Sequence record: PZ179881.1
From: a phage
Direction: 5' to 3' (one strand)
Length of the DNA stretch: 41,801 bases
Below the pieces are notes generated by a model, which saw only the letters and a list, made by a program, of their open reading frames with translations, was not told where the DNA came from and made no database searches. Positions 1 to 41,801 of the stretch are shown one piece after another (the first letter of the stretch is position 1; the number at the start of each line of letters is the position of its first letter). The position numbers and the translations under genes are program-made.

Positions 1-1926
1 ATGACTATTCCATATAACGTTTTGATGGAAACTGAGGAGGAAATGGCAGCACGTCTGGAGGAGGAGGGTAACGCCCTCCCCTACCTCTCGGACGAAGACT
101 TTGCCAATATGAGTGAGCTGGAGCAGGAACGCCGTGTGCGCCTGGAACAGCTCGCCGCTCTACAGATTCACTACAAAGACTTCAAGCGTTTCCTCACCGA
201 CGTTATGGTGGAGTTAGGCTTCTCAGTATCAAAGATTCAGGCCGACATTGCTGACTTCATGGTCAACGGCGGCAAGTACATCATGATTGAGGCACAGCGT
301 TCGCAGGCTAAGACGACCATCGCAGCCGCGTTCTGCGTGTGGCAGCTCATTCATGACCCGAAACACCGTGTGCTGATTATCTCAGCAGGCGGCTCGCAGG
401 CAACTGATATCTCCACCCTGGTCATTCGTATCATCATGAATATGGATGTGCTGGAGTGTATGCGCCCGGATAAAGCGAAGGGCGACCGTGTATCGGTAGA
501 GAAGTTCGACCTGCACTACTCTCTGCGCAAGCTGGATAAATCGGCTTCCGTAAGCTGCTGCGGTATCACCGCTAACTTGCAGGGCCGCCGTGCCGATACC
601 CTGCTGGCGGACGATATCGAGTCCCAGAAGAACTCCCTGACTGCCCTGATGCGTGAACAGCTCCTGGCTAAAACCCTCGACTTCACCTCCATCAACCAGT
701 CCGGTCGAATCATCTACCTGGGTACTCCGCAGTCCTCTGACTCAATCTACAACACCCTGCCGGGCCGTGGCTACAACGTCCGCATCTGGCCGGGGCGATT
801 CCCTACCAAAGAACAGCTCCCGTACTACGGTGAGCACCTGGCTCCGCTGCTGGCGTCCATTATGGAGCGCTACCCGGAAGTGCAGGGCGGTGGTGGTATC
901 AACGGCGACCAGGGAATCCCTATCGAGCCTTCTTTCCTGGGTGAGGAAATCCTCCAGGCTAAGGAGAAAGACCAGGGGCCAGCTTGGTTCCAACTCCAGC
1001 ACATGCTGAACACTAAACTGATGGACGCCGAACGGTATCCATTGAAGACTGACAACTGCCTCACTATGCCGATTCGCGTAGGAGACGAACTACCACTGGA
1101 GATTAAACGTGGCTACGACTACCGCGAAGTGCAAGTCGAAGGCAAGACCTACCGATTCGCTAAGCCTCACACATATTCCGCAGAACTGGCTAAGCCTACA
1201 GGCATCTGCTTCTACATCGACCCCGCAGGTGGGGGTAAAGGTAAAGGCACTCATGGGGGTGACGAAACTGGCTGGGCGTGTACTGCCTTCCTAAACGGTA
1301 ACATCTTCGTGCTGGGCTACGGCGGCATCAAAGGCGGCTATGGCCTGAACGGTTCCGGTGAAACGGATGGCTCTATGGTCAAGCTGGCCGAGCTGGTTAA
1401 ACGCTTCAAGCCCAACGTGGTTAAGATTGAGCAGAACTTCGGCTACGGTGCATTCCGTGCTGTCTTCCTGCCAATCCTGCGCGAGGTCTACCCGGATTGC
1501 TCCGTGGAAGACGACTTCGTTACCGGGCAGAAGGAAGTCCGTATCATCGACATTCTTGAGCCTATCATTGCTCGTGGTTCCCTCATCTTCGCAGAGGACG
1601 CCCTTCTGGGCGAGCGGCAGTCACTCCAGATTCACCCGGACGTGAACCGCATCACCTACTGCATGATGCAGCAGATGAACCACATCACCCGTGACCGTGA
1701 CTCCCTGATTCACGACGACCGACTGGATGCCCTGGCTGGCGCTTGCTACCATTGGGAACAGCAGCTCATCGTTGACCAGCACGAGATTCGGAAACGGATG
1801 CAGGAGGCCGAGGAGAAGAAGTTCTGGGCTGACCCGCTACAGCACAATCGCATTAAGCAGCAGGGCCAAGTGTTCAATCGTGGCACTGGCATGAACATGC
1901 TCGCACACCGTCGCGGTCGCCGTTAG
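1..1926 (+). CDS. terL: Terminase large subunit (T7 gp19-like packaging ATPase/nuclease)
   Basis: 641-aa ORF; its ATG at 1-3 overlaps the stop of the upstream small-terminase ORF across the window boundary (TA + A); size, position and remembered similarity to T7-group large terminases. Confidence 0.85.
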   Translation: MTIPYNVLMETEEEMAARLEEEGNALPYLSDEDFANMSELEQERRVRLEQLAALQIHYKDFKRFLTDVMVELGFSVSKIQADIADFMVNGGKYIMIEAQRSQAKTTIAAAFCVWQLIHDPKHRVLIISAGGSQATDISTLVIRIIMNMDVLECMRPDKAKGDRVSVEKFDLHYSLRKLDKSASVSCCGITANLQGRRADTLLADDIESQKNSLTALMREQLLAKTLDFTSINQSGRIIYLGTPQSSDSIYNTLPGRGYNVRIWPGRFPTKEQLPYYGEHLAPLLASIMERYPEVQGGGGINGDQGIPIEPSFLGEEILQAKEKDQGPAWFQLQHMLNTKLMDAERYPLKTDNCLTMPIRVGDELPLEIKRGYDYREVQVEGKTYRFAKPHTYSAELAKPTGICFYIDPAGGGKGKGTHGGDETGWACTAFLNGNIFVLGYGGIKGGYGLNGSGETDGSMVKLAELVKRFKPNVVKIEQNFGYGAFRAVFLPILREVYPDCSVEDDFVTGQKEVRIIDILEPIIARGSLIFAEDALLGERQSLQIHPDVNRITYCMMQQMNHITRDRDSLIHDDRLDALAGACYHWEQQLIVDQHEIRKRMQEAEEKKFWADPLQHNRIKQQGQVFNRGTGMNMLAHRRGRR

Positions 1927-1972
1927 GCCGCGCACCAAAATTCCTTTTTAAAAATTCTTTGGAGAAATCACT

Positions 1973-2878
1973 ATGTTCGTACATGAAGCCCCATTCCTCG
2001 GCGCAGTATCCGGTGCAGGTCAGCTCCGTCGTGACGCAGTTCGTCTGCAATGCTATGCGGAAGTCAACACTGGCGCTCAGCCGGACGTGCTGGCGTTCTG
2101 GGAATCTCAGAAAGCCCTGGCTGATGTTGACCACGGCCTGCCGTATGATGGCACCTATGTTCCCGGCGTAATCGACCTGCGCCCGGCTTGTTACAAGGTG
2201 CTGTCCCATTACCGTATGTTCAACCCGGAAGGTATCCAGGACTACAAAGACTTCTGCGACTTCTTCATTGAAGCCAACGGAGGCGTTACTGTACCTCTGG
2301 GTTTTAGTAAGAACCTGTCAGGCTCGAACGCATCGGATGCAGAAGGCACCTATGTCCCGGCAGGTTCTACCTACACTAACAGCGTCGAAGTAACAGGCGG
2401 CAAAGCTCCATATACCTACCAGTGGTTCAAGCGTTCTGGTGGTGTAGACCAGCCTGTAGGAACCGATGCACCGGAGTACAGCATCCCTAACTACGCAGCA
2501 GGTAACAACGGTGATTACTTCGTCCGGGTTACTGATGCCAAAGGTACAGTTATTGAGTCTACCCGTGACCGTACCCGTGTTGCAGTGAGCCTGACTACCA
2601 ACCTGCCAACCACGGCTACCTGGACTGAGGGTACTGCGGCAACCCTGCGGGTTTGGGCGGCTAATGGCTTCCATCCATACGCTTACCAGTGGTTCAAAGA
2701 CGGTGTAGCGACGGGCAACACTGGTGCTTCCCTGAACAAATCTTCACCTACTGCTGCTGATGCAGGCGTGTATCATTGTCTCGTTACCAGTGCAAACACC
2801 CGTGCACCTCGGACGGTTGAGTCCGTTAAGTGCACTGTGACTGTCAATCCGGCACCGCCAGTTGAACCAGTGGAATAA
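1973..2878 (+). CDS. Ig-like domain protein (two tandem immunoglobulin-like domains); possible virion decoration/adhesion protein
   Basis: 301-aa ORF with GGAG 8 nt upstream of ATG; two repeats of the Ig I-set-like pattern (YTYQWFKRSGG...GDYFVRVTDAKG and YAYQWFKDGVATGN...DAGVYHCLVTSAN); N-terminal ~110 aa unrecognised. Confidence 0.6.
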   Translation: MFVHEAPFLGAVSGAGQLRRDAVRLQCYAEVNTGAQPDVLAFWESQKALADVDHGLPYDGTYVPGVIDLRPACYKVLSHYRMFNPEGIQDYKDFCDFFIEANGGVTVPLGFSKNLSGSNASDAEGTYVPAGSTYTNSVEVTGGKAPYTYQWFKRSGGVDQPVGTDAPEYSIPNYAAGNNGDYFVRVTDAKGTVIESTRDRTRVAVSLTTNLPTTATWTEGTAATLRVWAANGFHPYAYQWFKDGVATGNTGASLNKSSPTAADAGVYHCLVTSANTRAPRTVESVKCTVTVNPAPPVEPVE

Positions 2879-2886
2879 CAAGGAGG

Positions 2887-2911: not shown

Positions 2912-3484
2912 ATGAGCATCAAACAGAAGGTGGCGCTTGGTTCTATCGCCAGCGTCCTATCAATCATCGCTACTGTATACCCGAATGAGCTGCACACCTC
3001 TGACCGGGGACTACAGCACATAGCCCAATGGGAACAGTATGCTACCCGGACTTACCTGGACAGCGTTGGAGTACCGACCATTGGCCTGGGTGCTACAATC
3101 TGGCTCGACGGGAAGCGCCCTAAAGCGGGCCAGGAGGCCTCGGACTTCCAGGCAGCCCAACTGTTCATCCGTGACATTAAAGTGGCTGAGAAGTGCGTTC
3201 TGGAGCGCCTGGATGGTGCTGCGATGCCTCAGTCGGTATTCGATGCGTCAGTATCCCTGATTCACAATACCGGGTGCGCTGGTGCAACCTACAACCCTAA
3301 GCGTAAGGCTAAGACCAACCTCCGATTACAGGCTGAGGCCCATAACTGGTCACAGGTCTGCTACCGCATGGGTGACTTCATCTACGCTGGTGGCCGGGTA
3401 TCCAAAGGTCTGGTTAACCGCCGCACCGCTGACCAAAGGCTATGCCTGGAGGACTTACCGAATGTTTCCCTCAACCGCCGTTAA
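2912..3484 (+). CDS. SAR-endolysin (T4-lysozyme-type muramidase with N-terminal signal-anchor-release domain)
   Basis: 190 aa; weakly hydrophobic Gly/Ala/Ser-rich N-terminus (VALGSIASVLSIIATVY) followed by E-x8-D-x5-T catalytic spacing (WEQYATRTYLDSVGVPT), as in phiKMV/P21-type SAR lysozymes. Confidence 0.8.
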   Translation: MSIKQKVALGSIASVLSIIATVYPNELHTSDRGLQHIAQWEQYATRTYLDSVGVPTIGLGATIWLDGKRPKAGQEASDFQAAQLFIRDIKVAEKCVLERLDGAAMPQSVFDASVSLIHNTGCAGATYNPKRKAKTNLRLQAEAHNWSQVCYRMGDFIYAGGRVSKGLVNRRTADQRLCLEDLPNVSLNRR

Positions 3485-3833
3485 GAAGGTAGCAGCAGTG
3501 GCCCTGGTTGCCGCTGTGCTGGCCTCTCTGCTGTTCCTGGTACACTTCTATAAGGATAAGGCTGATACGGCCACAGAGCGGCTCCAGGGCGTTACTACGG
3601 AGCTTACTGAGACTCGTGATGCCTATGACCGATACGTTAACGAGCAGAGCCTCATCCGGGATATCCTGGCTGCTGGTGCTGCGGCTAAGCAGGCCTCAAA
3701 GGAGAAGACTGATGATGCCATTACGAAACACAAGGCTTCCGGTACTCGTGTCACTGTTAGCGATGCTGACGCTGACCTCCTGTACCAGAGAAGTCGTGAA
3801 GTACGAGAGGGTGCCGCTGGTTCTATCCAGTGA
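3462..3833 (+). CDS. i-spanin (Rz-like)
   Basis: ATG at 3462 (in frame with track ORF 3282-3833), GGAGG ~10 nt upstream; N-terminal TM segment (VAAVALVAAVLASLLFLV) then charged helical periplasmic domain; start overlaps endolysin 3' end. Confidence 0.65.
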   Translation: MFPSTAVKKVAAVALVAAVLASLLFLVHFYKDKADTATERLQGVTTELTETRDAYDRYVNEQSLIRDILAAGAAAKQASKEKTDDAITKHKASGTRVTVSDADADLLYQRSREVREGAAGSIQ

Positions 3834-3999
3834 GGTTACTGACCCGGTTAAGCCTCCGCTGTTCCAGAAGGATACCGACCTGGTTGAGTACGCCTTGCAG
3901 CTCCTGGGTGATATTGAGCAGATGAACCAAGACCGCGCTACTGTGCGGAAAGCTGTGGATACCCACAACGGTGCCTCTGTGACTCACCCTGTGAAGTAA
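3712..3999 (+). CDS. o-spanin (Rz1-like outer-membrane lipoprotein)
   Basis: Internal ATG of track ORF 3508-3999 with GGAG 8 nt upstream; signal peptide ending in lipobox-like LTSC; short Pro-rich mature region; out of frame and overlapping the i-spanin gene. Confidence 0.6.
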   Translation: MMPLRNTRLPVLVSLLAMLTLTSCTREVVKYERVPLVLSSEVTDPVKPPLFQKDTDLVEYALQLLGDIEQMNQDRATVRKAVDTHNGASVTHPVK

Positions 4000-4043
4000 C
4001 CCTGTGCTGGGCCGTCGGTGAGTGTATACCTGCGGCCCAAATA

Positions 4044-4052
4044 TGGTATAAT
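4044..4052 (+). promoter_or_regulatory. Extended -10 element TGgTATAAT (possible host promoter)
   Basis: Perfect TATAAT with upstream TG; no convincing -35; located just after the lysis cassette at the start of the non-coding terminal region. Confidence 0.25.
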
Positions 4053-4149
4053 TATGCGAGACGGTAGCGACCCGGCGCGGAACCCGTACTTCCCCCATAG
4101 GGCACCCGGCGGAACCATCGGAGTGACCATCTGGCCATCTGGACGGCTA

Positions 4150-4190
4150 AACGGGGAGCCTGCCGGATAACCGGGGAGCGAACCGGGGAG
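4150..4190 (+). repeat. Three direct copies of AACsGGGGAG
   Basis: AACGGGGAG (4150-4158), AACCGGGGAG (4169-4178), AACCGGGGAG (4181-4190); flanked by further CCGGGT / GGGTTA-rich repeats to about 4460. Confidence 0.5.
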
Positions 4191-4503
4191 AACCTCGCTT
4201 TAACCTGTGGGTTAGCCGGGTTGCCCTGTGCTTTACTCTGTGCGGTATCCTGTGCGTTAACCGGGTTGTACTCACCACGTCCCGCAGGTTTATCAGAGTC
4301 GCCACGGGTTAGACTCAAGGGTTATCGGTTGGTGAGTTTAGCAGTTACATCACCGGGTAACGAGGGTATCGGGTTAACAGTGGCTATAGTAACAGGGTTA
4401 GCCGGGAGTGTCAACCGGGTTTATTCATTGGGTTACTCATTGGTTTAAATCCGGGTAGACAGGCGGCCTATCTGTATCTTCTGCCATTACCCAGAGAGTA
4501 AAT

Positions 4504-4527
4504 CTGAATTGGCACCCCTATAGTAAC
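4504..4527 (+). promoter_or_regulatory. Phage RNAP promoter (CTGAATTGGCACCCCTATAGTAAC) in terminal/leader region
   Basis: One of four near-identical + strand copies of yTGAwTTGGCACyCCTATAG; resembles the SP6/K11 class of single-subunit RNAP promoters (xxCACTATAG core); predicted +1 at the final G (4523). Confidence 0.65.
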
Positions 4528-4565
4528 AGAACGGTCGAATGCGGCTTGTGTATCTGTTACGGCGG

Positions 4566-4770
4566 TAACCCGGAGGGAAGGGAGGGAGGAGAGAGACACG
4601 GGAGAGAGTAACCCAGAGAGGAGACTACCCGGAGAGACTACCCAGAGCATAGCCCAGAGGTTAGCACCCAGAGAGTAACCCAGAGGAGAGCAACCCGGAT
4701 AAGCTAACCCGGTTAACAGACACGGAGAGCAAGCCAGAGAGTAACCCGGCATAGCATAACCCGGAGAGCT
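4566..4770 (+). repeat. Array of about 13 short purine-rich direct repeats (CCCrGAGAG-type units, period about 12-13 bp)
   Basis: Visible tandem units such as ACCCAGAGAG, CCCGGAGAG, CCCAGAGGAGAG, often followed by TAA or CTA; starts about 40 nt downstream of the phage promoter at 4504. Confidence 0.6.
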
Positions 4771-4805
4771 ACCGCCTATAGTAAACCCGGCTAACCCTGG
4801 TTAAC

Positions 4806-4817
4806 CTGCACTCGCAA
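4806..4817 (+). repeat. Recurring hairpin motif copy 1 (CTGCACTCGCAA)
   Basis: Core GCACTCGCA, potential TGC-ACTC-GCA stem-loop; intergenic, ~30 nt upstream of the sigma70-like promoter. Confidence 0.5.
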
Positions 4818-4848
4818 AGGGTATCTGTAAATAATTTCTAAAAGAGTG

Positions 4849-4878
4849 TTGACACGGGCTAATCAGTATTGCTATAGT
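4849..4878 (+). promoter_or_regulatory. Sigma70-type host promoter candidate (early)
   Basis: TTGACA (4849-4854), 18-bp spacer, TGcTATAGT extended -10 (4870-4878); AT-rich stretch upstream (4826-4846). Confidence 0.5.
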
Positions 4879-4988
4879 TCACATCGTCGAAGGGCAACAC
4901 GGAAACGGATAGCCCAGAGATACCCGGTCAAGCGGGTTAAGTAGACAGCCTGCTCAGTCATACGAACAACAGGCACTTGACAAGATGT

Positions 4989-5029
4989 GATGTAACGTAG
5001 TACCTTAGTAACCGATGTAACGCAGTACC
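4989..5029 (+). repeat. 16-bp direct repeat pair GATGTAACGyAGTACC
   Basis: Copies at 4989-5004 and 5014-5029 differ at one position; between a TTGACA box (4977-4982) and the first early ORF; candidate protein-binding site. Confidence 0.45.
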
Positions 5030-5088
5030 GCTCTTTAACAATCCGGGTAATCTATCAAGTGATGCCGTCTAACAATGAGGGTAACACG

Positions 5089-5400
5089 ATGGAATTAAAG
5101 AAACAGTTGACACGCTATAAACGCAGTGCTAACGTAGAAAAGCTCCACCAGACGCTAAGCGCTGAGGCGATGCAGAAGGATGGGCAAGCGGCACGACGCC
5201 GCAAGAAACAGCTAAGCGAGCGGCTTTACATTCCGCAAGTTATAAGCTCTAATGACTTCTCCGATAAGGGGAACATGCGCAAGACGGCAGCTAGGAGCAA
5301 TCAGGGCAACGTCCGCGCCATCGGCAATAAGACCGATGTTAAGATTAACAGCTATTGGTCAAGTAAACGCGGCGATAACATGCCGAAAGATAAAGGTTGA
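5089..5400 (+). CDS. Hypothetical early protein (very basic, low complexity)
   Basis: ATG at 5089 with GAGGG 7 nt upstream (track ORF 5059 begins at an upstream GTG); first ORF after the terminal promoter region; coding status less certain because composition looks atypical. Confidence 0.45.
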   Translation: MELKKQLTRYKRSANVEKLHQTLSAEAMQKDGQAARRRKKQLSERLYIPQVISSNDFSDKGNMRKTAARSNQGNVRAIGNKTDVKINSYWSSKRGDNMPKDKG

Positions 5401-5453
5401 CAGCTACGGCGTCACCTGATAGATTACCCGGACAGTTAGCCAGTGACCGCAAC

Positions 5454-5465
5454 CCGCACTCGCAA
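5454..5465 (+). repeat. Recurring hairpin motif copy 2 (CCGCACTCGCAA)
   Basis: Core GCACTCGCA flanked by AACCC ... GGGTT, which can extend the stem; in the ORF-free gap. Confidence 0.5.
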
Positions 5466-5936
5466 GGGTTCAAACGGTTGAGTCACTGAGTTAACAAATC
5501 GCTTGACACTAAGCGATAACATGATGTAAAGTGATTACCGAGTTGACACGATGTTGGTGTCCTCCACGGCAGGGCGAGTAAACAGCCAGCCGATGCGCAG
5601 TCCTCCGGCGCGATGAGTCCTACGGGACGGTAGATGGGGAGGCCGAGCTAGGATTTAGGTCACATAAAATAATCCGAAGGGTGTGTGGCGAGCATTACCG
5701 TCTTATAGTCGAAAGGCTCACGGTAGGAATCGCGGCAAAGGTTCTCTTATCCAGTCAGTACAGGGATAACGTCCGATGCCACCAACGAGATAACATCCAG
5801 AGACGCTGGACGGTTGGAACTGAGTACGCTTAACGGTGGAAATGGGAAGGCTTGCGTAGTGATGTTATCTGGTTGGTTAATGTAAGCGTCATTGATGTGA
5901 TGGCGCTGACTTTAACTAACAACTGAGGATATAATC

Positions 5937-6506
5937 ATGGCAACTGCAAAAATCAACTTCGCTAAACTGACCACCACTGAGCAGATGGACGCGGCAATCG
6001 CCAACGTAGCAGAACGCTCTAACCTGCTGCAAGCTGACATTCAGCACGTCGCTGTAGCTATCCTGTGCCACGCCTTCCGTACTGGCGACTACACTCGTGC
6101 TAACACGCTGCACGATGCGCTGGGTGCTGGTGTACGCCGCAAGGGTCTGGTAGCGTGGTTCAGCAAGGGTGGCCTCAAGGTGTCTGAGAAAGAGCAGGCA
6201 TTCGTGGGCTTTGAGCAAGACCTTGATGCCCTGCGTATCAAGGCTGAGAAGGGTGACGACAAGGCTAAGGCTAAGGTCGTGGCTCACCTCGACGCGATGA
6301 AGAAACAGAACTGGTGGGACATGAAGCCGGAGAATAGCTTCGCTGGCTTTGACTTTGAGGCTGAGGTTGCCCGCCTGATTAAACGTGCGCAGAAAGCCAT
6401 TGAGAAGGATGGCGCTACGCCTTCCGATGCTAAGGGTGAGGACTACAAAATGACTGTGACGCCTGAGAAGCTGGCCCAGCTCAAGGCTCTGGTAGGTGCA
6501 GCATGA
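5937..6506 (+). CDS. Hypothetical early protein
   Basis: 189-aa ORF, GAGGA 7-8 nt upstream of ATG; no recognisable motif. Confidence 0.7.
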   Translation: MATAKINFAKLTTTEQMDAAIANVAERSNLLQADIQHVAVAILCHAFRTGDYTRANTLHDALGAGVRRKGLVAWFSKGGLKVSEKEQAFVGFEQDLDALRIKAEKGDDKAKAKVVAHLDAMKKQNWWDMKPENSFAGFDFEAEVARLIKRAQKAIEKDGATPSDAKGEDYKMTVTPEKLAQLKALVGAA

Positions 6507-6781
6507 TTAAGTCTATCAGCGTGGCGGTGCCTGAGCACCGCGCTGTACCCTGCAAGTCAAAGGTGAGCTGGTCGTCACCATTCCATAGCCGCGTGAAGTA
6601 TGAGGAGTACCTCAAGCGCTATGACTATGTGGTGGGTGTCAATGGTGTGGCGTTTATCACCCGCACCTTGAAGCATAACGGCCTCGTGATGATTGCGACG
6701 GTCAAGGTGTACTTTGAGAATGCACCTGTGGTAGAGTTCAGCTATGCGCCAAGTCATGCGCTGCTGGAATCCCTTGCGTAA
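6503..6781 (+). CDS. Hypothetical early protein
   Basis: 92-aa ORF whose ATG overlaps the upstream stop (ATGA), suggesting translational coupling. Confidence 0.6.
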   Translation: MIKSISVAVPEHRAVPCKSKVSWSSPFHSRVKYEEYLKRYDYVVGVNGVAFITRTLKHNGLVMIATVKVYFENAPVVEFSYAPSHALLESLA

Positions 6782-6901
6782 TGTGTTTGGTGTGTGGTGC
6801 TGGTTAACTCCCGGCACCACTGACCACGACAACTACCTCCTGATGTATGGGTGGAATGTCAAGGTGACTCAATGGAGAAGGTGACAGGCCGATGGCTTGC
6901 T

Positions 6902-6912
6902 TGCACTCGCAG
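6902..6912 (+). repeat. Recurring hairpin motif copy 3 (TGCACTCGCAG)
   Basis: Intergenic, ~40 nt upstream of the ORF starting at 6951. Confidence 0.5.
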
Positions 6913-6950
6913 GCCATTATCATGTTCCCTAATGATGTGAGGATGTAACG

Positions 6951-7355
6951 ATGTTTACTGTATTCCTGAGCGCGTTCCGTGGTGAGCGCACGTTTGAGCA
7001 GAACGTACTGAAATCTGCTGAGCTGGCTTCCCTGCTGATTAATCAGGGCTATACGCCGGAAGTGGTGGCGGGATTCTACCCGGAGAACGGCGGCCAGACC
7101 GTGACGTTTGAGCAGTCCTACGCCGTGCGTGTTGAGACGTATGCTGAGTGCGTCAAGTTGGCACAACTGGCGGGCGATGCGTTCCAGCAGGAATGTGTCC
7201 TGGTGGTCGATGTGCTTGACCGCATGGCTGCATCGTACCTGTACCCGGCTGGTGACTCCACGACTGAGGGTTACCTGCGTCGCCAGACTGAGCAGCCAGA
7301 GGGTGCGCGTAGTCAGTGGCGCGGTGCGTGGTGGACTATTGAGGCGACTGCGTGA
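6951..7355 (+). CDS. Hypothetical early protein
   Basis: 134-aa ORF with GAGGA upstream of ATG. Confidence 0.65.
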   Translation: MFTVFLSAFRGERTFEQNVLKSAELASLLINQGYTPEVVAGFYPENGGQTVTFEQSYAVRVETYAECVKLAQLAGDAFQQECVLVVDVLDRMAASYLYPAGDSTTEGYLRRQTEQPEGARSQWRGAWWTIEATA

Positions 7356-7912: not shown

Positions 7913-8147
7913 GACACAACGCCGTATCAATAAGCGCAACCTGATTCGTAACAGCCGCCGCTACCGTGTGGTAACCGGGGAGGGTAACGGGCATTACTTT
8001 CCGGTCGGCACCATTGTACGCCATGCTGACGCTGAGCATTACGCTGATGTAGGCGGCTCTGAGTCAGAGAATAACTTCCTTGTCGTTGAGACAGGCAAGG
8101 TACGATTCCCACTCAAGCAGTGGGTAAGCCCGCGAGATATCGCATAG
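7905..8147 (+). CDS. Hypothetical early protein
   Basis: ATG 7905 preceded by GGAGG (7895-7899); in frame with track ORF 7866-8147, whose N-terminal extension is rejected. Confidence 0.55.
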   Translation: MTKTQRRINKRNLIRNSRRYRVVTGEGNGHYFPVGTIVRHADAEHYADVGGSESENNFLVVETGKVRFPLKQWVSPRDIA

Positions 8148-8164
8148 TAGGCTGGCCGAAGCGT

Positions 8165-8450: not shown

Positions 8451-8460
8451 GGATGTTAAT

Positions 8461-32583: not shown

Positions 32584-34836
32584 ATGGCAGAGGGCAGCAT
32601 CCTCCCAACGGTGCCTAATGCTGCAATTGAGCGCGGGCAGCCTATCCAGGTCAACGCGCCAATGGCTCAGCAGCAGGCTCGACAGGCATTCGTCCCGTCA
32701 CGCACTCAGTACGTTCAGGCGTCCGGGCAGGCGCGGGTACAGGAATCATTACTCGGTGAAGTCAACAACCGTAACATTGAGGCGCTGTCCCGCCTGTCCG
32801 CAAGTCTGGGCCAGAAGTTCCAGGAGGCCCAGGAAGACAAGTTCGCTGAGGGTTACCTGCGGCACATGCAGGGTGAGGCCGTAGCGGATATCGCAGAGGA
32901 GAATCCCTTCTGGGGTATCTTCGGCGACGGCGCAGCGGTTCGCGGTGCTCGTGCAGCCCAGGTGCAGAACGCAGGCACCAGTGTACTCTCGTGGGTGCAG
33001 GCCAACCAGGGTAGCCTGATTGGTATGCCTGCGGACGCCCAGCGTAAGGCTGTGGCTGACTATGTGCAGACACTCAACACAGGTGACCCGCAAGCGGATA
33101 TGCTCATTGCGCAAAGTGCGATGAAGATTATCCCTGCGGTTATGGACAACCTCACCCGCGCCAGTGAAAGCGAGAATCAGCGCCAGGCAGCTCTGGCTCA
33201 GGCAGATGTGCTGGAACAACATGCACAGGGCTTGAACTATGCGGCTGACCAGGTGGCTAAAGGCCAGATGGCACCGGAGCATTACGATGCTCTCAAGGCT
33301 CAATTCCTACAGGCAGCAATGCCGATGCCGGGACAATCACCGGAATCATATCGGGCATCAATGCAAGGCAACGTGCTCTCGCTCGTGCGGAACGGTCAGT
33401 TCGAACTGGCTAACTCCGTGCGCAGCCAAGTGCTCGACCCCATGCTGACGCCGGATGAAAGATTCCAGCTTGACCAGCAGATGAAGCAGGCTAACGCTAC
33501 CTGGCTCAAAGATAACCCGGTATCTCGTGACTACACCGAGTTCACCGGAACACTGCCATCCCAGATTAACGCTGGTCGTTACTCTACGGAAGAACAGCTC
33601 CTCGCTGACATTGACCGCACCAACGCGGACTTCAAGGCTCAGACAGGCGCTCTCAATCCGATGATTAACAACGAGGAGCGAGCGCAGTATCTCGCCCGTT
33701 GGCAGGCGTGGAAACAGCAGCAGGACGAGGCAAACGCAAAGGCAGAAGCCAAGCAGAATGATGAGGAAGTTAAACGCACCATCTTCATGCAGGGTTTCGC
33801 CCACGGCTCGCCGTCCATCATGACCGCATCTGGTCTGGATGCACGGCAGAAGGCGGCGTTTGAGCAGACTGAGGCGGCGAAGTTCCTGACGGAGCCTGGC
33901 CTGCAATCAGCAAGCAACCTCGGCAAACTGGCAGTGAATGGCTACACCTTAGCACCCCTTAAAGAGAAGCTCTCTGGTACGTTGGGCGTTCTCAAGGGCG
34001 GCGGTATTCCCCGTGAGGAAGATATGCAGGCATTGCAGGCATCCTTCCAGAAGTTCCAGAACACCCCTTATGGGCTGGGAGCAGCGGAGGCGTACTTCGG
34101 TGAAGACCTTCCGCTGGTTATGGAAATGGCAGGACTCGACATGAGCGATAAGGCCAACCAGCAGTATTTCCGTGAACGTGCTCAAGCTCAGCGCAATGTG
34201 TTGAAGCCGGGGCCGGACACAATCAAGAAGGCTAACGACCTGGTTGATTCGGAAATGACCAACAAGGGCATCGGCTCCTGGTGGGCGCGTACCTTCAACG
34301 ACGCCCAGGCTATCGGGATTGGTTATGAGTCGGCACTCAAGGAAGATATGAAGCGCCACACGGCAGAGGTCATGGCGCAGTACCCGAACCTCGACGAGGA
34401 GCAGGTATTGAAGATTGCAGGGCAGCGAAGCATGAAGGGCAAACAAGTCCTGGGGAATATGCTGGTCGCAGGGCCGGGAGCTGACAAGCTCTTTCGGAAC
34501 CTTAATAGCCACCTGGATATTCCAATGCAGACGCCGGGCGATACCCGGTTCAACGTTGCAATCAATGACCAGATTCGTACCAAAGTAGATAAACGCTACG
34601 ACTTTACTGTGGGTTCAATCAACGCGTTCCAGAACGGCCAGATGTATGTTACTGTCACCCGTGACGACGGGGTACAGCAGAACATCGTCATGAGCGCCGA
34701 ACAGGTTGCGCAGTCGATTAACGCCAGCAAAGCCAAAGCAACCGCTGACAACAAGGAACGACGTAAGACCTACCAGCTCGAAACGGGCATGAGAGAGGCT
34801 TACCGCGTATCCGAAGCAAATAGAGGTAAGATGTAA
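32584..34836 (+). CDS. Internal virion (core) protein B
   Basis: 750 aa, Gln/Ala-rich helical; position and size as T7 gp15. Confidence 0.65.
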   Translation: MAEGSILPTVPNAAIERGQPIQVNAPMAQQQARQAFVPSRTQYVQASGQARVQESLLGEVNNRNIEALSRLSASLGQKFQEAQEDKFAEGYLRHMQGEAVADIAEENPFWGIFGDGAAVRGARAAQVQNAGTSVLSWVQANQGSLIGMPADAQRKAVADYVQTLNTGDPQADMLIAQSAMKIIPAVMDNLTRASESENQRQAALAQADVLEQHAQGLNYAADQVAKGQMAPEHYDALKAQFLQAAMPMPGQSPESYRASMQGNVLSLVRNGQFELANSVRSQVLDPMLTPDERFQLDQQMKQANATWLKDNPVSRDYTEFTGTLPSQINAGRYSTEEQLLADIDRTNADFKAQTGALNPMINNEERAQYLARWQAWKQQQDEANAKAEAKQNDEEVKRTIFMQGFAHGSPSIMTASGLDARQKAAFEQTEAAKFLTEPGLQSASNLGKLAVNGYTLAPLKEKLSGTLGVLKGGGIPREEDMQALQASFQKFQNTPYGLGAAEAYFGEDLPLVMEMAGLDMSDKANQQYFRERAQAQRNVLKPGPDTIKKANDLVDSEMTNKGIGSWWARTFNDAQAIGIGYESALKEDMKRHTAEVMAQYPNLDEEQVLKIAGQRSMKGKQVLGNMLVAGPGADKLFRNLNSHLDIPMQTPGDTRFNVAINDQIRTKVDKRYDFTVGSINAFQNGQMYVTVTRDDGVQQNIVMSAEQVAQSINASKAKATADNKERRKTYQLETGMREAYRVSEANRGKM

Positions 34837-34838
34837 CA

Positions 34839-37800
34839 ATGGCTAAATTCCGCGTAGACATAAACAAACCAACCGAGTATGACGGCCTGGCTAAGAAGAC
34901 AGAGGAGGCTTATGGTCTACCGGAAGGCCTGACTAAACTGGTACTGATGATTGAGAACCGCAACAACCCGCGCCGGGATGCAGTATCTCCGGCAGGGGCG
35001 GAAGGCCCAATGCAAATCATGCCAGCCAACAAGAAAGCCCTCGGAATCACCGATAGCTTCGACCCGGAGCAGGCATTCATGGGAGCAGGTAAGCTGCTCT
35101 CTGACGCCTTGAAACGCTACGACGGTAACATCGGAGCTGCCCTGGCGGACTATAATGGTGGCCCGAAGGCCGCAGAACGTTACCTGGCAGGTGAAGCGCT
35201 GCATCCAGAGACGAAGCAGTACCTGGATTTCGCGCAGGAGTATCTCCAGTCTGCCAACCCTACAACCAGTTATGGCGATACGGTCATTAACGCAGGTATC
35301 AACCAGGTGGAAGCGCAGGCTCCATCTGACCTGTACCAGGACGAAGAACAGCCGCTGTCCGCGTTTGTCACCGGGCTGGACGAGGAAGCAGAGCGCCGCT
35401 TGCAGGACGAAGCGAAGTTCTACGACCTCAGCCTGAATGACGCTGTGAAGTTCGGCTTTAAAGACACACTGACCTCCGCCATTTCCCATGCGTTTGAACG
35501 CGAGGAGGATGAAAATTATGTGCTTGGCGATGAGCAGTTTAATCAGATTAAGCAACAGTTTCCGCAAGGACTCAGTGAAGCCCAAGAAGCCCGAATCAGA
35601 AACAGCCGCAGTCAAGCGGACTTCGAATACAACGTTGAGCGCGTTCGTCAAGAGAATGACTTCGGGCAGCGCATGGCGACACAAATGGGCTGGAATGCTG
35701 CTGGTGCCTATGCTGGCGTCATGGCAGGTGGCCTATTCGACCCCGTTGCATTACCGCTTGGAACCTTTGGTGCTGCTGGACGCCTCATCAAGGGAAGCAG
35801 CGCTCTCGCTTCTGCTGGGCGTATGGCTGCTGAGGGTGCTGCTGCTACAGCTATCATCAGTCCCGTCGTTCAACAGATTGATAAAGGCAGCGTAGACGCA
35901 GGCCTGGTGTTGCAGCACATGGGTACGGCAGCGGTATTCGGCGGCGGACTCGGCCTGGTGTTCCGCTCTCCTGCGGTTCGCCCATTCGACGAGGTGACCC
36001 GTGAATCTGCACAGGGACGTGTGGACGGTAACCCGGTGTATCAGGATGTGTTGCCGCAGACTGGCGACGACGGTATCGTTGTTAACTTCAATGACGCTCA
36101 CGATACGTCAGTTGGCCCGGCTGGTGAAATCATCGGTGTAGGCCCGACTGCTGTGCTGCGCCACGCTGAGCGCTTCGACGAGAGCTACGGCTCCAAAGCT
36201 GCGGACGACGTGCGCAACCTCCGCGTCAAGTGGTACAATTGGGAAACCCGTAACAAGCTGTTCGGCTGGGCGGACTCTGAGGGCGTACAGCTCGCTAAGT
36301 CAAAGAGCAAGGTAGCCCGCTGGGTTGGCGCTATGTGGTCTGGTGACCAGGCTGGCCTCGGTCGTCAGCAGACGCGCACCGCCGCTGTCCTCAAGGAGCA
36401 GATGAAAGACCAGATGCTGTTCGATTACGTGCCGCAGATGAAGTCTGCCCTGGAATCGTACATGACCCCAGGTGAGAAGATGAACTACATGGCAGGCGGC
36501 GCTGCTGACATACAGGCGCGATTCTCCCGTGAAGTTCAGCTTGAGCGCTACCGCCACCGCGAGTACCGCGCTGCCAACGGCGGAGAGTCCACTGGCTATG
36601 TGTCTGAGGCTCCGGCCTCGGTGCAGCAGGCAGCTAAGGCGCTTGACGACCTGATGGCGAAGACGAAGAAGATGCACCTGGACGCTGATACCGAACACGC
36701 CAGCATCCTCAAGGATATGGACAGTGTGGGTTACATCGAGCAGCGCCCAGACTTCATCCGAATCAACCGCGCAACGCCGGAGGAGCGCAAGGCGTTCCTG
36801 GACATGGTTAAGGACGACTACCACGCTGAGGCGACCGCCAAGATTAACAAGATGCGCAAGGAGCGCACCGAGTGGATTGAGGCGACGTACAAACGTGCGG
36901 AGCAGGCGCTGGATGGCGAGGGTAAGAAGGAGTGGGTTGACGACTTCCTGAAAGACCCGGAGCGCTACTTCGACAAGCACATTGAGTTGCTGTCCAAGAA
37001 GATTCACAGCGAAATGGATAAACGCGCAAGTCACTGGTGGGAGAACGCCCTGCGTAACCCGGAGGAACGCTACCAGAACAGCGAGGCGTCCCTGCTGACC
37101 CTGGCCCGCGAAATGAGTGATGAGTGGTTTACTGGCCGTGAAGTAGACGCCGACATGGTGAAGGACTTCCAGAAAGCCCTGACCTCCAAGTGGGCAGACA
37201 CCTCCCGCCGTGAGCTGCAAATGACCAACAAGCGCGTAGTCAACGGTCAAGACCTGTACCTTCTGGATATGTTCCAGCACGACGTGTTCGCATCGACTGT
37301 CTCCACTGTCAACAACACAGCAGGCCGTGTCGCAATGGCTAAGCTGGGCTGGAAGACGGAACAGGACATTCAGGACACACTGACCGCCATGTACCACGGT
37401 GGTGCGACGACTCGTGAAGTTGAAGCGGCTAAGCACATCAGCGACATTATCCTCAACCGTGCTCGCGGCCTGGATGATGCTCCTCTGGTGCAGTCCCTCA
37501 GCAACATGACTCACGCTACCATGATGGGTAAGCTGGGCCAGGCTATTCTGGCTGACCTGCCTATGGCTATCGGTAACATCGGCATCGGCGGCATGTTCGA
37601 CGCGCTGGGTAAGATGGCTGAGAAGGTGATGGACGGCTCCATGTTCGTCCGCAACGGTCGCCTGACTGATGTGGGTTCTGACCTGGATTCGCTGTCTAAA
37701 GGGATGCTGGGCCACGACAACGAGCTGTGGATTCCTCAGCAGACCAACGCTGACGGGTTCGCAATGGAGGTAGGCGGCTCACTTCTCCGCCGTACTGCCG

Positions 37801-38636
37801 CAGGCGCTCGTATTACCAACACACTGTCCGGCGCTAACGCAATGGCTAAGCTGGTAGGCACTGGTGTTACCCGTGCGAGCAACAAGAAGATGCACACCTT
37901 CTTCCGTACCGGGAAGGGTATCTCCGAAGCTCGCCTGGCGGACGTTGGCTTAACCAAGAAGGAAATCACCCGCATAAAGAAACAGTTCGGCCAGTTCTCC
38001 GACAAGGATAACTTCGGCCTGGACAAGTGGACTGACCCGCTGGCTAAAGAAGACCTGATTGCCGCAGCTAACCGCTTCTCGCAGCAGGGCATGATGAGCA
38101 AGTCCTATGCAGGTGACCTGCCGCAGTGGACGCGCAACACCGTCCTGGGTTACATCTACTCACGCTTCCGTGCTATCGGCATCAAGGCGCAGGAGAAGGT
38201 GCTGGTTCGTAACCTGACACTCGCAGACAGCAACACCGTAGCCATGCTGACCTCGGCGGTAGCCTTCGCTACCTTCCTGAGCTATGCCCGTATCTACGCA
38301 GATGCAGCAACCAGCAAAGACGGTAAGAAGGTGCTGAAAGACCGACTCACTCCGGTTGGCATTGCTGACCAGGTGATGAGGTTCACTTCGGTAATGGGCC
38401 TGGGTTCTGAGTTCACCAACATCCTGAACCTGCTGATTGGCGGTGGCGTACAGGGCGGTAGCGATACCCCGCTGACTGCTTACCCGTCAAACGTAGGTAA
38501 GGCGATTGGTGCCGCAGGCAAGGCTGTTACTGGCGACGGCTCTGTGGGTAATGCTGTGGCTGCTGGTACTAAGCTGCTCCCTGGTGCGAACACCTACCAG
38601 ATGCTGCTGCTGCGCCAGGCGCTGCAAGACGACTAA
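34839..38636 (+). CDS. Internal virion protein C with N-terminal lytic transglycosylase domain
   Basis: 1265 aa; N-terminal LVLMIENRNNPRRDAVSPAGAEGPMQIMPAN matches the SLT catalytic motif; size and position as T7 gp16. Confidence 0.8.
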   Translation: MAKFRVDINKPTEYDGLAKKTEEAYGLPEGLTKLVLMIENRNNPRRDAVSPAGAEGPMQIMPANKKALGITDSFDPEQAFMGAGKLLSDALKRYDGNIGAALADYNGGPKAAERYLAGEALHPETKQYLDFAQEYLQSANPTTSYGDTVINAGINQVEAQAPSDLYQDEEQPLSAFVTGLDEEAERRLQDEAKFYDLSLNDAVKFGFKDTLTSAISHAFEREEDENYVLGDEQFNQIKQQFPQGLSEAQEARIRNSRSQADFEYNVERVRQENDFGQRMATQMGWNAAGAYAGVMAGGLFDPVALPLGTFGAAGRLIKGSSALASAGRMAAEGAAATAIISPVVQQIDKGSVDAGLVLQHMGTAAVFGGGLGLVFRSPAVRPFDEVTRESAQGRVDGNPVYQDVLPQTGDDGIVVNFNDAHDTSVGPAGEIIGVGPTAVLRHAERFDESYGSKAADDVRNLRVKWYNWETRNKLFGWADSEGVQLAKSKSKVARWVGAMWSGDQAGLGRQQTRTAAVLKEQMKDQMLFDYVPQMKSALESYMTPGEKMNYMAGGAADIQARFSREVQLERYRHREYRAANGGESTGYVSEAPASVQQAAKALDDLMAKTKKMHLDADTEHASILKDMDSVGYIEQRPDFIRINRATPEERKAFLDMVKDDYHAEATAKINKMRKERTEWIEATYKRAEQALDGEGKKEWVDDFLKDPERYFDKHIELLSKKIHSEMDKRASHWWENALRNPEERYQNSEASLLTLAREMSDEWFTGREVDADMVKDFQKALTSKWADTSRRELQMTNKRVVNGQDLYLLDMFQHDVFASTVSTVNNTAGRVAMAKLGWKTEQDIQDTLTAMYHGGATTREVEAAKHISDIILNRARGLDDAPLVQSLSNMTHATMMGKLGQAILADLPMAIGNIGIGGMFDALGKMAEKVMDGSMFVRNGRLTDVGSDLDSLSKGMLGHDNELWIPQQTNADGFAMEVGGSLLRRTAAGARITNTLSGANAMAKLVGTGVTRASNKKMHTFFRTGKGISEARLADVGLTKKEITRIKKQFGQFSDKDNFGLDKWTDPLAKEDLIAAANRFSQQGMMSKSYAGDLPQWTRNTVLGYIYSRFRAIGIKAQEKVLVRNLTLADSNTVAMLTSAVAFATFLSYARIYADAATSKDGKKVLKDRLTPVGIADQVMRFTSVMGLGSEFTNILNLLIGGGVQGGSDTPLTAYPSNVGKAIGAAGKAVTGDGSVGNAVAAGTKLLPGANTYQMLLLRQALQDD

Positions 38637-38663
38637 CCGAACGGGGTGTACAATTCGTGTACG

Positions 38664-38687
38664 TTGAATTGGCACCCCTATAGTAAC
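38664..38687 (+). promoter_or_regulatory. Phage RNAP promoter upstream of tail fibre gene
   Basis: TTGAATTGGCACCCCTATAGTAAC followed by TAAACGAGGG; ~25 nt before the tail fibre ATG. Confidence 0.7.
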
Positions 38688-38707
38688 TAAACGAGGGAAT
38701 AGGCTTT

Positions 38708-41284
38708 ATGACCACTTCAACCTGGCAACCATTTGCTATAGGTGATGGCGACTATAACACCATGCACACCTGGGCTGGTGATGGTAATGCTGCTCGTGCA
38801 TTTGAGCTTAACTTCAAGGGCGGGTACATTAGCCAGGCTGACGTTAAGGCGTTTATGATTAAGCGCGGTACGAACCAGCAAGTTGACCTCACTGTTAAAT
38901 TTACCAATACGAACACCGTCACTCTGAGCCAGGCCGTACCGGAAGGCTGGGACGTGACTATCTACCGTGACACGCCAAAGGATAAGCCGACGGCATCCTT
39001 CGTGGACGGTGCGCTGATTACCGCAGCTAACCTTGACCGTAACGCACGGCAGGCTATCTTCGGTGTGGCTGAGCTGGCTGACCGGATGGATATCTCACAA
39101 GATACCTCCAACAATGCCCTGGCGACTGCACAGGCTGCTGTGGCGGGTGTGGCTGCTACCCAGGACACCGCCGACCACGCGGTAGGTATCGCCAATGACG
39201 CGGTAACCACTGCCAGAGGCGCAATGACCAAATCCAACCAGGCGCTTGCCCGTGTTGACCAGGCATCCAGCCGCTCGCTGGACGCACTCAACGTGGCTAA
39301 CGAAGCCCTGGACGTCGCTAACTCCCATGTTGACGACAGCAAGAACATTAGCCGCGTTGTCCGTGCTCCGGCAGGTGAAACCCTGGCAGAACTCCCGGCG
39401 CGTGAGCTGCGTAAAGGCAAAGGCCTCTCCTTCGACGTTAACGGCGATATTGTCGCTGTTACCCCGGTTGAAGGTTCTGCCGAAGCCGTGCTACAATCAC
39501 TCCGCCAGCCTAACGGACTGTCCCACATCGGTAACGCCTATGGCACCGCTGGACTGGACACCGCCATCAAGTACCTGACTTTTGAAATGTTCGGTGCTAA
39601 AGCTGGAACCACTACTGACCAGACTGCTGCTATTCAGGCAACGGTCGAAGCAGCCGCCAATACTGGCCTGCCTATCTGGTCTACTGGTGCCTACTTCATG
39701 AACGGTATAGTAACCCTTGATAAAGACGTCAAGATTACTGGTGCTAAGTTCATTGGCCCAGCATCGTCCACTTCTCAGAAGTTCGCGGTGCAGGCTGACG
39801 TTACCTTTGAGTGGTGCTCCTTTGACAAGGTGTACATTCACCACACTGACGGTAACCTGAAAGTTATCAACTTCAACATTGAGAACACCCGCTCCACCGC
39901 TGCAATCTTCTCTGAGAAGGTTGAGTCGAGAGTGACTGTAGAGCTGCGCTATGGCACGTTCCGTAACTGCTACTTCGGTTATCTCCGTCAGGGCGGCTCT
40001 GGCATGGGCCTTCGTGCGAACGTTATGCGCGGACTCCAGTTCTTTGACATGCAGGGTGACTGCATTGAAATGAACCTGTGCATCAACGATGAGTACACTC
40101 TGGTTGAAGACGTAGTAATCGACGTGGTTGACCACCTCGGCACCCAGCCCAATTGGGGCATCGCTATGGGCTTTGCTGGTAAGGGTGACTACGGACTGAC
40201 CGAGGACTACACCAACTACTTCAAGAACCTGACGCTGCGCAACTGCCGTGTGTATGCCGCTCGCCAATGTATCCACATTGAGAAGGGCTACAACTGCCTG
40301 ATTGAGAACGTCGAGCTGTACCCGGATAACAACCGCTCTACCAATGCTGGTATCGAAGCCGCAGGCCTCGTCCTGTATGGCTGCTCCAGCATTTCTGTTG
40401 ACGGTGTTACTGGTTCGCCGATTACTGGTCAGCGTATGCTCTGGGTTACCTGGGGTATCACTGGTGGTCAGTACAAGTCAGCAGGCCGGGATATCTCCTT
40501 CCGCAACGTCAACATCGGCGGTACGGTTGAGATTCACATGGCGGCTACCGACACCTACCCAGCGTTCCTGGAAATCGACCACCTGAATGCAGACAGGCTG
40601 ACCATCATCGGCCACGCCTCTGAGTACAATGTGGCTAACGTCCGGGCTAAGGCTATCGAAATGGAGTTCCACCGCGTTAACAACGACGGTCGTGACTCTG
40701 TACGTCGCCCTTCCCGCTGTGTGGCTAACTTCCGTAACGTCCGCGCCAATCTCATTGCGAACACTGGCGTAACCCTGGGCCGTATGGCCGTGGATGAAAT
40801 GTCCGTATCTGATACGAACTTCCCTCTGCGCAAAACAGCCAGCTCGGTTACCAACCGTGGTACGCCACTGACCAAGATTGACGGCACCTTCTTCCACGAA
40901 GGTAACGGGTTCCCGTGGGGCTACTGGTTCCTGCCAGGCGACCGCATCGTGAACGCACAGGGTACTACCTACACCATCCTGACGGAAGGTTGTCAGTTCA
41001 AGTCCTCTGGCGACACTGTGGTGCGGGCAGCATCCGCTGGAGCTACCCTGCTCCAGGGTAACACCACTGAGAACTGGACTACGGTTTACTGGAAGACGGC
41101 TGGTTGTAAGGTTGTCATTCCGAAAGGTGGTGCAGGCGGCTCTGACCTCCACACTACTATCATCCGCTCTGCCTACATCGGCGGCGGCATCTACACCATC
41201 GGCATCGCTGACCCGCTTGGCGCGGATATCCCTGCGGGGACTGTTATCACGCCGGAAGCGATTTGCACCTATGTAACTAAATAA
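38708..41284 (+). CDS. Tail fibre/tailspike protein with probable beta-helical polysaccharide depolymerase domain
   Basis: 858 aa; preceded by a phage promoter; central/C-terminal region has repetitive Gly/Asn/Thr-rich segments typical of beta-helix tailspikes (domain call from composition, not a search). Confidence 0.7.
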   Translation: MTTSTWQPFAIGDGDYNTMHTWAGDGNAARAFELNFKGGYISQADVKAFMIKRGTNQQVDLTVKFTNTNTVTLSQAVPEGWDVTIYRDTPKDKPTASFVDGALITAANLDRNARQAIFGVAELADRMDISQDTSNNALATAQAAVAGVAATQDTADHAVGIANDAVTTARGAMTKSNQALARVDQASSRSLDALNVANEALDVANSHVDDSKNISRVVRAPAGETLAELPARELRKGKGLSFDVNGDIVAVTPVEGSAEAVLQSLRQPNGLSHIGNAYGTAGLDTAIKYLTFEMFGAKAGTTTDQTAAIQATVEAAANTGLPIWSTGAYFMNGIVTLDKDVKITGAKFIGPASSTSQKFAVQADVTFEWCSFDKVYIHHTDGNLKVINFNIENTRSTAAIFSEKVESRVTVELRYGTFRNCYFGYLRQGGSGMGLRANVMRGLQFFDMQGDCIEMNLCINDEYTLVEDVVIDVVDHLGTQPNWGIAMGFAGKGDYGLTEDYTNYFKNLTLRNCRVYAARQCIHIEKGYNCLIENVELYPDNNRSTNAGIEAAGLVLYGCSSISVDGVTGSPITGQRMLWVTWGITGGQYKSAGRDISFRNVNIGGTVEIHMAATDTYPAFLEIDHLNADRLTIIGHASEYNVANVRAKAIEMEFHRVNNDGRDSVRRPSRCVANFRNVRANLIANTGVTLGRMAVDEMSVSDTNFPLRKTASSVTNRGTPLTKIDGTFFHEGNGFPWGYWFLPGDRIVNAQGTTYTILTEGCQFKSSGDTVVRAASAGATLLQGNTTENWTTVYWKTAGCKVVIPKGGAGGSDLHTTIIRSAYIGGGIYTIGIADPLGADIPAGTVITPEAICTYVTK

Positions 41285-41294
41285 GGAGAATATC

Positions 41295-41483
41295 ATGTGG
41301 CTAGTGGACACCGTAGAGAAGGCGGCTCCCGGTGTCCCGCCCGTCGTAGTGACGGGCCTCACCTTCGCTGGAGTCAGTCTACAGGATTGGGTATACCTAC
41401 TCACCATTGTGTACCTAATCGTGATGATTGGGAAAGGAATTAAGCAACTGTTCTGGGGAGATAAAGATGGCAGAACTAACTGA
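41295..41483 (+). CDS. Holin-like small membrane protein (possible pinholin)
   Basis: 62 aa; two hydrophobic segments (PPVVVTGLTFAGVSL, WVYLLTIVYLIVMIG) and charged C-terminus; AGGAG upstream; sits at the T7 gp17.5 position between tail fibre and terS. Confidence 0.5.
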   Translation: MWLVDTVEKAAPGVPPVVVTGLTFAGVSLQDWVYLLTIVYLIVMIGKGIKQLFWGDKDGRTN

Positions 41484-41801
41484 CGACGAGAAACTCGAAG
41501 TATTCAAGCAGATGCTCGCCGAAATGGACAACGAGAAGCTGGCTAAGCTGCTGCTCAATAAGTCCCTGCAAAAGCTGGCTCTGCTGCTGGAAGAAGACAT
41601 GGCTACCGCTGCCGACTTCAACGTTATCCGGGCAATCCTGAAAGACAACAACATCGGTATCGTGCCGACCCGTGAGAACGCTATGGGTAAACTCCAGGAG
41701 AAGCTCAAAGAGCGCTCCCAGGAAGCGGACAAAGGCAACAACATTATCCCTGTGGACGAACTCACGCAGGTTGATATTGGCGACTTTATTATGAGGCACT
41801 A
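41467..41801 (+). CDS. terS: Terminase small subunit (3' end completed by base 1 of the window)
   Basis: ORF from ATG 41467 (GGGGAG upstream) runs to the last base without a stop; final TA plus window base 1 (A) gives TAA overlapping the terL ATG; helical, charged 111-aa product; called by position. Confidence 0.55.
   Translation, partial: MAELTDDEKLEVFKQMLAEMDNEKLAKLLLNKSLQKLALLLEEDMATAADFNVIRAILKDNNIGIVPTRENAMGKLQEKLKERSQEADKGNNIIPVDELTQVDIGDFIMRH

Follow-up and report, generated by a model that had tools for sequence, protein, structure and literature searches.

The phage record PZ179881.1, a sequence of 41,801 nucleotides (nt) that was analyzed in full and is referred to below as the window, raises the question of whether its first and last bases are also the ends of the DNA molecule packaged in the virion. 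The window opens with the start codon of terL, the gene for the large terminase, and closes within terS, the gene for the small terminase. Our analysis indicates that the record very probably holds a complete, non-redundant genome of the genus Cronosvirus in permuted form, cut at base 1 of terL, and that the virion DNA is probably linear with a predicted direct terminal repeat of ~404 bp bounded by positions 4067 and 4470. The case is in itself ordinary, being already explained by a known phage species group, a known assembly/record artefact, and a known type of packaging. What is added is a base-level prediction of the termini, along with a modest sequence-derived lead towards a junction signature common to T7-like phages and Melnykvirinae.

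A record opened at the terS/terL junction

The terS open reading frame (ORF) starts with the ATG at 41467 (the closest in-frame stop upstream is at 41425), comprises 111 codons, and reaches position 41801 with two bases, TA, left over. Base 1 is an A, and in circular form the junction reads ACTAATGA, where ...CAC TAA ends terS and the stop codon shares one base (A) with the ATG of terL. This is the arrangement described in the original prediction, namely a terS that lacks a stop at the last base and is completed by base 1 in overlap with the terL start, and the sequence confirms it. The 111-residue product matches phrog_9441 (E = 3.6e-56) over residues 2–111, reaching the last profile position (119/119), and also matches the Pfam family PF11123 (T7 gp18-type DNA packaging protein). 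Because the phrog_9441 match extends to the end of the profile, the protein is complete if, and only if, base 1 supplies the stop. The cut of the record falls inside the stop codon of terS. The two genes, both on the + strand, thus encode a T7 gp18-like small terminase (41467–41801, TAA completed by base 1) and a T7 gp19-like large terminase (1–1926; phrog_17672, phrog_38, and PF22530, Terminase-T7 RNaseH-like). The sequence GAGG is found 5 nt ahead of the terL ATG, within terS, and the TAATG overlap presumably couples the translation of terS and terL.

Scanned as a circle, the sequence also shows the TAATG overlap between long ORFs at 10408, 11629, 19389, and 24548, and ATGA joining long ORFs at 6504, 9362, 9655, and 13230. 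Three internal overlaps had been listed previously as TAATG or ATGA: those at 17552–17556 and 20986–20990 are indeed TAATG, but the one at 7353–7357 is TGATG, which keeps the one-base geometry, or GTGA if a GTG start is used. One-base stop-start overlaps are commoner in the genome than that earlier list suggests, and because many internal junctions between long ORFs share this geometry, the wrap-around junction is typical for the genome.

An 80-mer that joins the final 40 bases of the window to its first 40 is found, exact and internal, in the GenBank sequences of GAP227, Kc318, EspYZU05, and GY3, as well as in an independent read-archive contig (Logan SRR29937353_5082). This contig, assembled from run SRR29937353 (41.5 kb), encodes an identical TerL with terS directly upstream. 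In all of these sequences, terS and terL overlap by one base in the annotation or gene calls; in GAP227, for example, the annotation gives terS (GAP227_42, terminase small subunit) as 36860..37195 and terL as 37195..39120. It is therefore extremely improbable that the source molecule truly ends at the window coordinates, either as a linear genome opened between terS and terL or as a truncated or incomplete one. The sole point in favor of such an end is that the window starts and ends there, whereas terS would be left without a stop codon, the end-start junction is contiguous in five related sequences, the content of the relatives is all present in the window except for variable early ORFs, and the exact placement of the cut at a start codon suggests that the record was reoriented on purpose.

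Comparison with GenBank phages by megablast showed 96–98% identity, over most of the length, to GAP227, EspYZU05, and GY3 (Cronobacter) and to Kc318 (Kosakonia), all four of which are classified as Autographiviridae, Melnykvirinae, Cronosvirus. Dev-CD-23823 is more distant, with 77–87% nucleotide identity to the window. The threshold used by the virus taxonomy committee ICTV for a genus is roughly 70% or more nucleotide identity, and by this measure the window belongs to Cronosvirus, making it a phiKMV-like podophage of the T7 supergroup from a group associated with Cronobacter and related Enterobacteriaceae. It encodes its own single-subunit RNA polymerase (RNAP), carries every assigned gene on the + strand, and follows the phiKMV-like order, in which the RNAP gene comes after DNA metabolism and next to the structural genes. 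After rotation, the window is colinear end to end in pairwise BLAST with five complete Cronosvirus records of 41.6–41.9 kb, compared with its own 41,801 nt. The records of GAP227, Kc318, and EspYZU05 run from window position 4612 round to 4611, and that of GY3, which is deposited as the reverse strand, from 4350 round to 4470. Because it is colinear over its full length with complete relatives, we consider the window to be complete and rotated. The original prediction of a complete, rotated genome is thus borne out by this colinearity and by the junction being internal in the relatives. It had also stated that every module of a T7-supergroup podophage is present once and in order, which agrees with family scans, and the comparison with phiKMV-type gene order that it proposed yields the succession early genes, DNA metabolism, RNAP, structural genes, holin-terS-terL, and lysis.

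The window contains no tRNAs, and its repeat families, which are mainly phage promoters, have no copies of more than 59 nt. Because there is no long repeat, the record has no residual end overlap and holds at most one copy of a terminal repeat. Its first base is that of terL, which lies on the forward strand, and its end joins its start seamlessly; Dnaapler-type tools start records at terL (PMC11783317). We infer that the two repeat copies were merged in short-read assembly, which would have collapsed the repeat into an apparent circle, and that a later reorientation step would have rotated the contig and put its origin at the terL ATG.

Predicted physical ends and terminal repeat

The sole long non-coding stretch of the window, 4000–5088, lies between the stop codon of the spanin gene Rz1 and the first early gene. 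In related phages, terminal repeats have been mapped by ligation-PCR (polymerase chain reaction) for Yersinia phage phi80-18 (325 bp; PMC7316996) and by read mapping for Pectobacterium phage Arno160 (443 bp; PMC7246868), and both repeat copies are also present in the records of phiR8-01 (385 bp), fHe-Yen3-01 (368 bp), and Klebsiella phage GP-4 (584 bp). Boundary motifs were taken from these five repeat-bearing relatives. In all five, the repeat begins with GCGACC right after ...TATGCGAGACGGTA (in GP-4, ...GTATGACCGGA), and its right boundary is GGCGGNNTA/TCTNTNTC, where the slash marks the cut. The left motif, GACGGTA/GCGACC...TCCCCCATAGG, occurs once in the window, at 4060–4101 (0 expected by chance), and so does the right motif, GGCGGCCTA/TCTGTATC, at 4462–4478 (0.07 expected). 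Because the boundary motifs of the relatives each occur once there, 404 bp apart, we place the left end at 4067 (GCGACCCGG...) and the right end at 4470 (...GGCGGCCTA). This predicts a direct terminal repeat of 404 bp (4067–4470, + strand), present in the record as a single collapsed copy, and a packaged genome of 42,205 bp. The physical termini had been proposed to lie within 4000–5090; homology supports that interval and narrows it to the two predicted positions. Both motifs are found in 8/8 cronosvirus sequences examined, 332–419 bp apart.

The predicted left cut is directly preceded on the + strand by the block CAAATATGGTATAATTATGCGAGACGGTA (4038–4066), which is conserved in Melnykvirinae, and this in turn by an inverted repeat (4008–4039). 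The fold of the inverted repeat is not significant alone (z = −0.93), and a functional hairpin is therefore not claimed here; a terminator scan of 3900–6000 found none. The predicted repeat contains TTCCCCCATAGGG at +24 and several short repeats of the AACCGGGTT type. Its right boundary carries ATCTGTATC (4470–4478, + strand), whose likeness to the T7 class II signal ATCTGTT suggests a function. In the window, ATCTGTA begins on the last base of the repeat, and the relatives carry ATCTGTA or ATCTATT.

In T7, concatemers contain one repeat per junction, where the gp18/gp19 terminase cuts, and the repeat is duplicated in maturation. The window likewise encodes gp18/gp19-type terminases (PF11123, PF22530, phrog_9441, and phrog_38) and carries conserved boundary motifs. 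Replication would then produce head-to-tail concatemers with a single repeat copy per junction, as in T7; the conserved sequences on either side of this copy would be the cut sites of the terminase, and maturation would duplicate the repeat. The resulting virion DNA would be linear, with about 42,205 bp packaged and a direct terminal repeat of roughly 404 bp from 4067 (GCGACC...) to 4470 (...GGCGGCCTA). More speculatively, the phage RNAP might pause at the right-boundary ATCTGTA, and this pause might be coupled to the processing of the junction, as with ATCTGTT in T7. Headful packaging, by which the genome would be permuted without fixed ends and the circular map would be correct, could also produce a record that behaves as a circle and holds no repeat, but we regard it as very unlikely. 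TerL and terS are of the T7 gp19/gp18 type, with a T7-type nuclease domain in TerL, rather than of the P22, T4, or Mu type that headful packaging would call for; exact terminal repeats are known from relatives in four genera of the subfamily, and in two cases they were established on DNA ends or reads; and the cut-site motifs are conserved in the window.

With packaging from fixed ends preferred, the ends might still lie elsewhere within 4000–5090 of a complete, rotated genome, either at 4611/4612, where the records of GAP227, Kc318, and EspYZU05 open, or at the borders of a 121-bp repeat, 4350–4470, which forms the identical ends of the GY3 record. We give this a small chance. Position 4611/4612 is within an array of short repeats, nothing corresponds to it at the ends mapped for phi80-18, Arno160, or T7, and the three records that open there are without any repeat, so their ends are probably conventional. 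The start of GAP227 was accordingly rejected as a true end, having no conserved motif and lying inside the repeat array of a record without a terminal repeat; the opening of the later records may have been copied from GAP227. There is no conserved motif at 4350 either, whereas GY3, too, keeps the left-end motif GCGACC along with TTCCCCCATAGGG at +24.

The GY3 record (LC779549) deserves closer consideration. Its identical 121-bp ends, at 1–121 and 41505–41625, correspond to window 4350–4470, and the end of the record is thus the exact equivalent of 4470, the right terminus predicted from other phages. An overlap of this size is expected from a graph loop with k = 121 that was broken at the k-mer ending at 4470, and the 121-bp identity is probably such a k-mer overlap. 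A graph break at a pile-up of read ends would yield an end of this kind, and the base-exact coincidence supports 4470 as a terminus. The 121-bp overlap was rejected as a true repeat because the left-end motif is located 405 bp from the end of the GY3 record. By this account, the GY3 record probably has 121 bp in excess if read as a circle and lacks about 284 bp if read as a linear genome that includes its repeats.

Several points weigh against ends at 4067 and 4470 and the history proposed for the record. The record carries a single copy of the repeat, and both the ends and the repeat of this genome are predicted from homology. The records of GAP227, Kc318, and EspYZU05 open at 4611/4612 and not at 4067 or 4470, and the GY3 record as deposited would imply a repeat of 121 bp instead of 404 bp. 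The annotated repeat boundary of phiR8-01 is off by one base, and phiKMV is without an ATCTGT-like motif at the right boundary. Furthermore, T7 RNAP responds to the class II signal in a strictly sequence-specific manner (10.1101/2021.01.11.426313), and because of this strictness, a function of ATCTGTA or ATCTATT with a different RNAP remains conjecture. Finally, literal circularization and reorientation by software is an assumption about provenance, although one that fits Dnaapler-type tools. The literature yielded no statement on the choice of record ends for GAP227, EspYZU05, Kc318, or GY3, and the Ahp1 paper contains nothing on termini. Scanning viral contigs of IMG/VR for the motif at the left boundary returned only the same five isolates that are already in GenBank and no new repeat-bearing cronosvirus.

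The left-boundary block is also kept in many Melnykvirinae-like records of Aeromonas, Klebsiella, Vibrio, Proteus, and Salmonella phages that were deposited rotated. In these the motif is found mid-record, for example, at ~21.6 kb in the Atoyac phages and at ~13.4 kb in phiAS7, and the true ends of such records could be reassigned from their sequences.

Elements right of the repeat and gene content

All features in this section are on the + strand unless stated otherwise. The first phage-RNAP promoter (CTGAATTGGCACCCCTATAGTAAC..., 4504–4534), identified by a match to the promoter pattern, lies 35 bp right of the repeat. The window has 6 matches to the pattern (five + strand, one − strand) compared with 0.77 expected. 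The 4504–4534 promoter aligns with the phi80-18 promoter at 351–375 and resembles an experimentally tested promoter of Dev-CD-23823 (PMC12272871). It is followed by the array of short imperfect repeats (ACCCAGAGAGTAA and AACCCGG, 4560–4800), parts of which are reverse complements of motifs within the repeat. Specifically, GTTAACCGGGTT and GGGTTAGCCGGG, found at 4150–4470, return as their reverse complements AACCCGGTTAAC and CCCGGCTAACCC in 4560–4800, and the two regions form many inverted pairs of 12–17 nt, 280–560 nt apart. These pairs are reminiscent of T7, which has short-repeat arrays beside its repeat. Further right is an early sigma-70 promoter region (4849–5050) that resembles T7 A1–A3 and contains TTGACA-18-TATAGT (11/12). 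This region matches positions of about 300–800 in several T7-like records and positions further inside others, which are probably rotated. Judged by this analogy, the layout right of the repeat is that of a T7-type left end.

The early and host-takeover genes (5089–10902) are the part that varies most among the relatives. An inverted repeat of 33 nt (5036–5068/5406–5438, 88% complementary) flanks the first of them (5089–5400), and the corresponding 416-nt RNA folds with the two arms paired (z = −5.55, with no shuffle equally stable). The left arm (5036–5068) resembles the sequence before T7 gene 0.3, ...CTCTTTAACAATC.GG.TAA..., where T7 has an RNase III site, and the inverted repeat may be an element of RNA processing or stability. 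In relatives that are otherwise 96–98% identical, a nucleotide match is absent or weak (about 70%) at 5790–6880 and 12880–13240, the former of which holds the ORFs 5937–6506 (phrog_1448, unknown function) and 6503–6781. Both segments are mosaic swaps of small early genes.

The DNA metabolism module (10915–20434) comprises primase, helicase, ligase, family-A DNA polymerase, exonuclease, endonuclease VII, and phosphoesterase, and is followed by the single-subunit RNAP (21357–23828; PF00940, E = 1.7e-89) at its phiKMV-like position. Just past the RNAP stop codon (23828), a promoter-like sequence on the − strand, CTGAATTGGCACCGCTATAGGGTT (23851–23874), points into the RNAP gene; it is located 37 nt upstream of the + strand promoter 23911–23934, which starts the structural genes. 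This element could be an antisense promoter or merely one arm of an inverted repeat. The structural module (24985–41284) starts with the portal gene at 24985 and continues with scaffold, major capsid, tail tube A and B, three internal virion proteins, and tail fibre/depolymerase. The holin (41295–41483, phrog_920) overlaps the start of terS.

Beyond terL, the window encodes an Ig-like/Hoc-like head decoration protein (1973–2878, phrog_2973), an endolysin (2912–3484, phrog_7), and an Rz-like i-spanin with an N-terminal membrane helix (3462–3833; phrog_214 and translation, coordinates as for GY3 ORF02). The last late gene, which overlaps Rz, encodes an Rz1-like o-spanin (3712–3999; phrog_456 and phrog_3001) whose sequence MMPLRNTRLPVLVSLLAMLTLTSC... 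has a signal peptide and the lipobox LTSC. From the ATG at 3712, this protein probably has 95 residues, including the signal peptide and lipobox; GAP227, EspYZU05, and GY3 annotate Rz1 only as an ORF of 60–67 residues, without that N-terminus.

Comparison with relatives, phi80-18, and T7

In practical terms, the record must be annotated as circular, as terS is otherwise lost or called truncated, and the packaged genome is predicted to exceed the record by about 404 bp. The boundary motifs offer a cheap way of placing the true ends in many rotated, repeat-less Melnykvirinae records, which is of use in genome engineering, in rebooting from synthetic DNA, and in keeping taxonomy comparisons consistent.

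The closest relatives, GAP227 (vB_CskP_GAP227, NC_020078), GY3, EspYZU05, and Kc318, share their gene order, the terS/terL TAATG, and the boundary motifs with the window, but their records are opened in the non-coding region and not at terL. GAP227 has no match for about 5790–6880 and about 12880–13240 of the window, and its endolysin has 182 residues, compared with 190 in the window, GY3, and Kc318. Yersinia phage phi80-18 (HE956710), of the genus Pokrovskaiavirus within Melnykvirinae, agrees with the window in module order, in the sequences at the two repeat boundaries, and in having a phage promoter just right of the repeat. It differs in that it shows little nucleotide similarity outside conserved genes, that both repeat copies are present in its record, and that its repeat, with experimentally mapped ends (PMC7316996), measures 325 bp compared with the 404 bp predicted here.

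The likeness to Escherichia phage T7 (NC_001604) extends to early sigma-70 promoters after the repeat and a gp18/gp19-type terminase, whereas the T7 repeat is only 160 bp long and the RNAP gene is early in T7 but comes after DNA metabolism here. The T7 repeat has TTCCCCCATAGGG from +24 of its left end, which is the same offset as from 4067 in the window, and T3 and phiKMV have close TTCCCCCATAGGG variants at nearly equal offsets. A related AAATAT...TA/ block precedes the cut in T7; in a manual ungapped count on printed sequences, 19 of the 29 bases before the left cut match between the window and T7 (the sequence preceding the T7 right repeat). Immediately after the repeat, T7 and T3 have ATCTGTT, the class II T7 RNAP pause/termination signal that the literature places in the concatemer junction (10.1101/2021.01.11.426313; 10.64898/2026.02.12.705533). 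In place of the strict ATCTGTT of T7, the window has ATCTGTA, which may have a role in pausing or cutting. It is possible, though we hold it tentatively, that T7/T3 (Studiervirinae) and Melnykvirinae share a cut-site signature consisting of an AAATAT...GGTA/ block, TTCCCCCATAGGG at +24, and an ATCTGT-type element at the right boundary. If so, repeat boundaries could be read from sequence in collapsed or rotated records of the subfamily, and the right-boundary element would be a pause signal for the phiKMV-like RNAP that couples transcription to junction processing. As a lead, the likeness to the T7 junction hints that transcription-coupled maturation extends to phiKMV-like phages.

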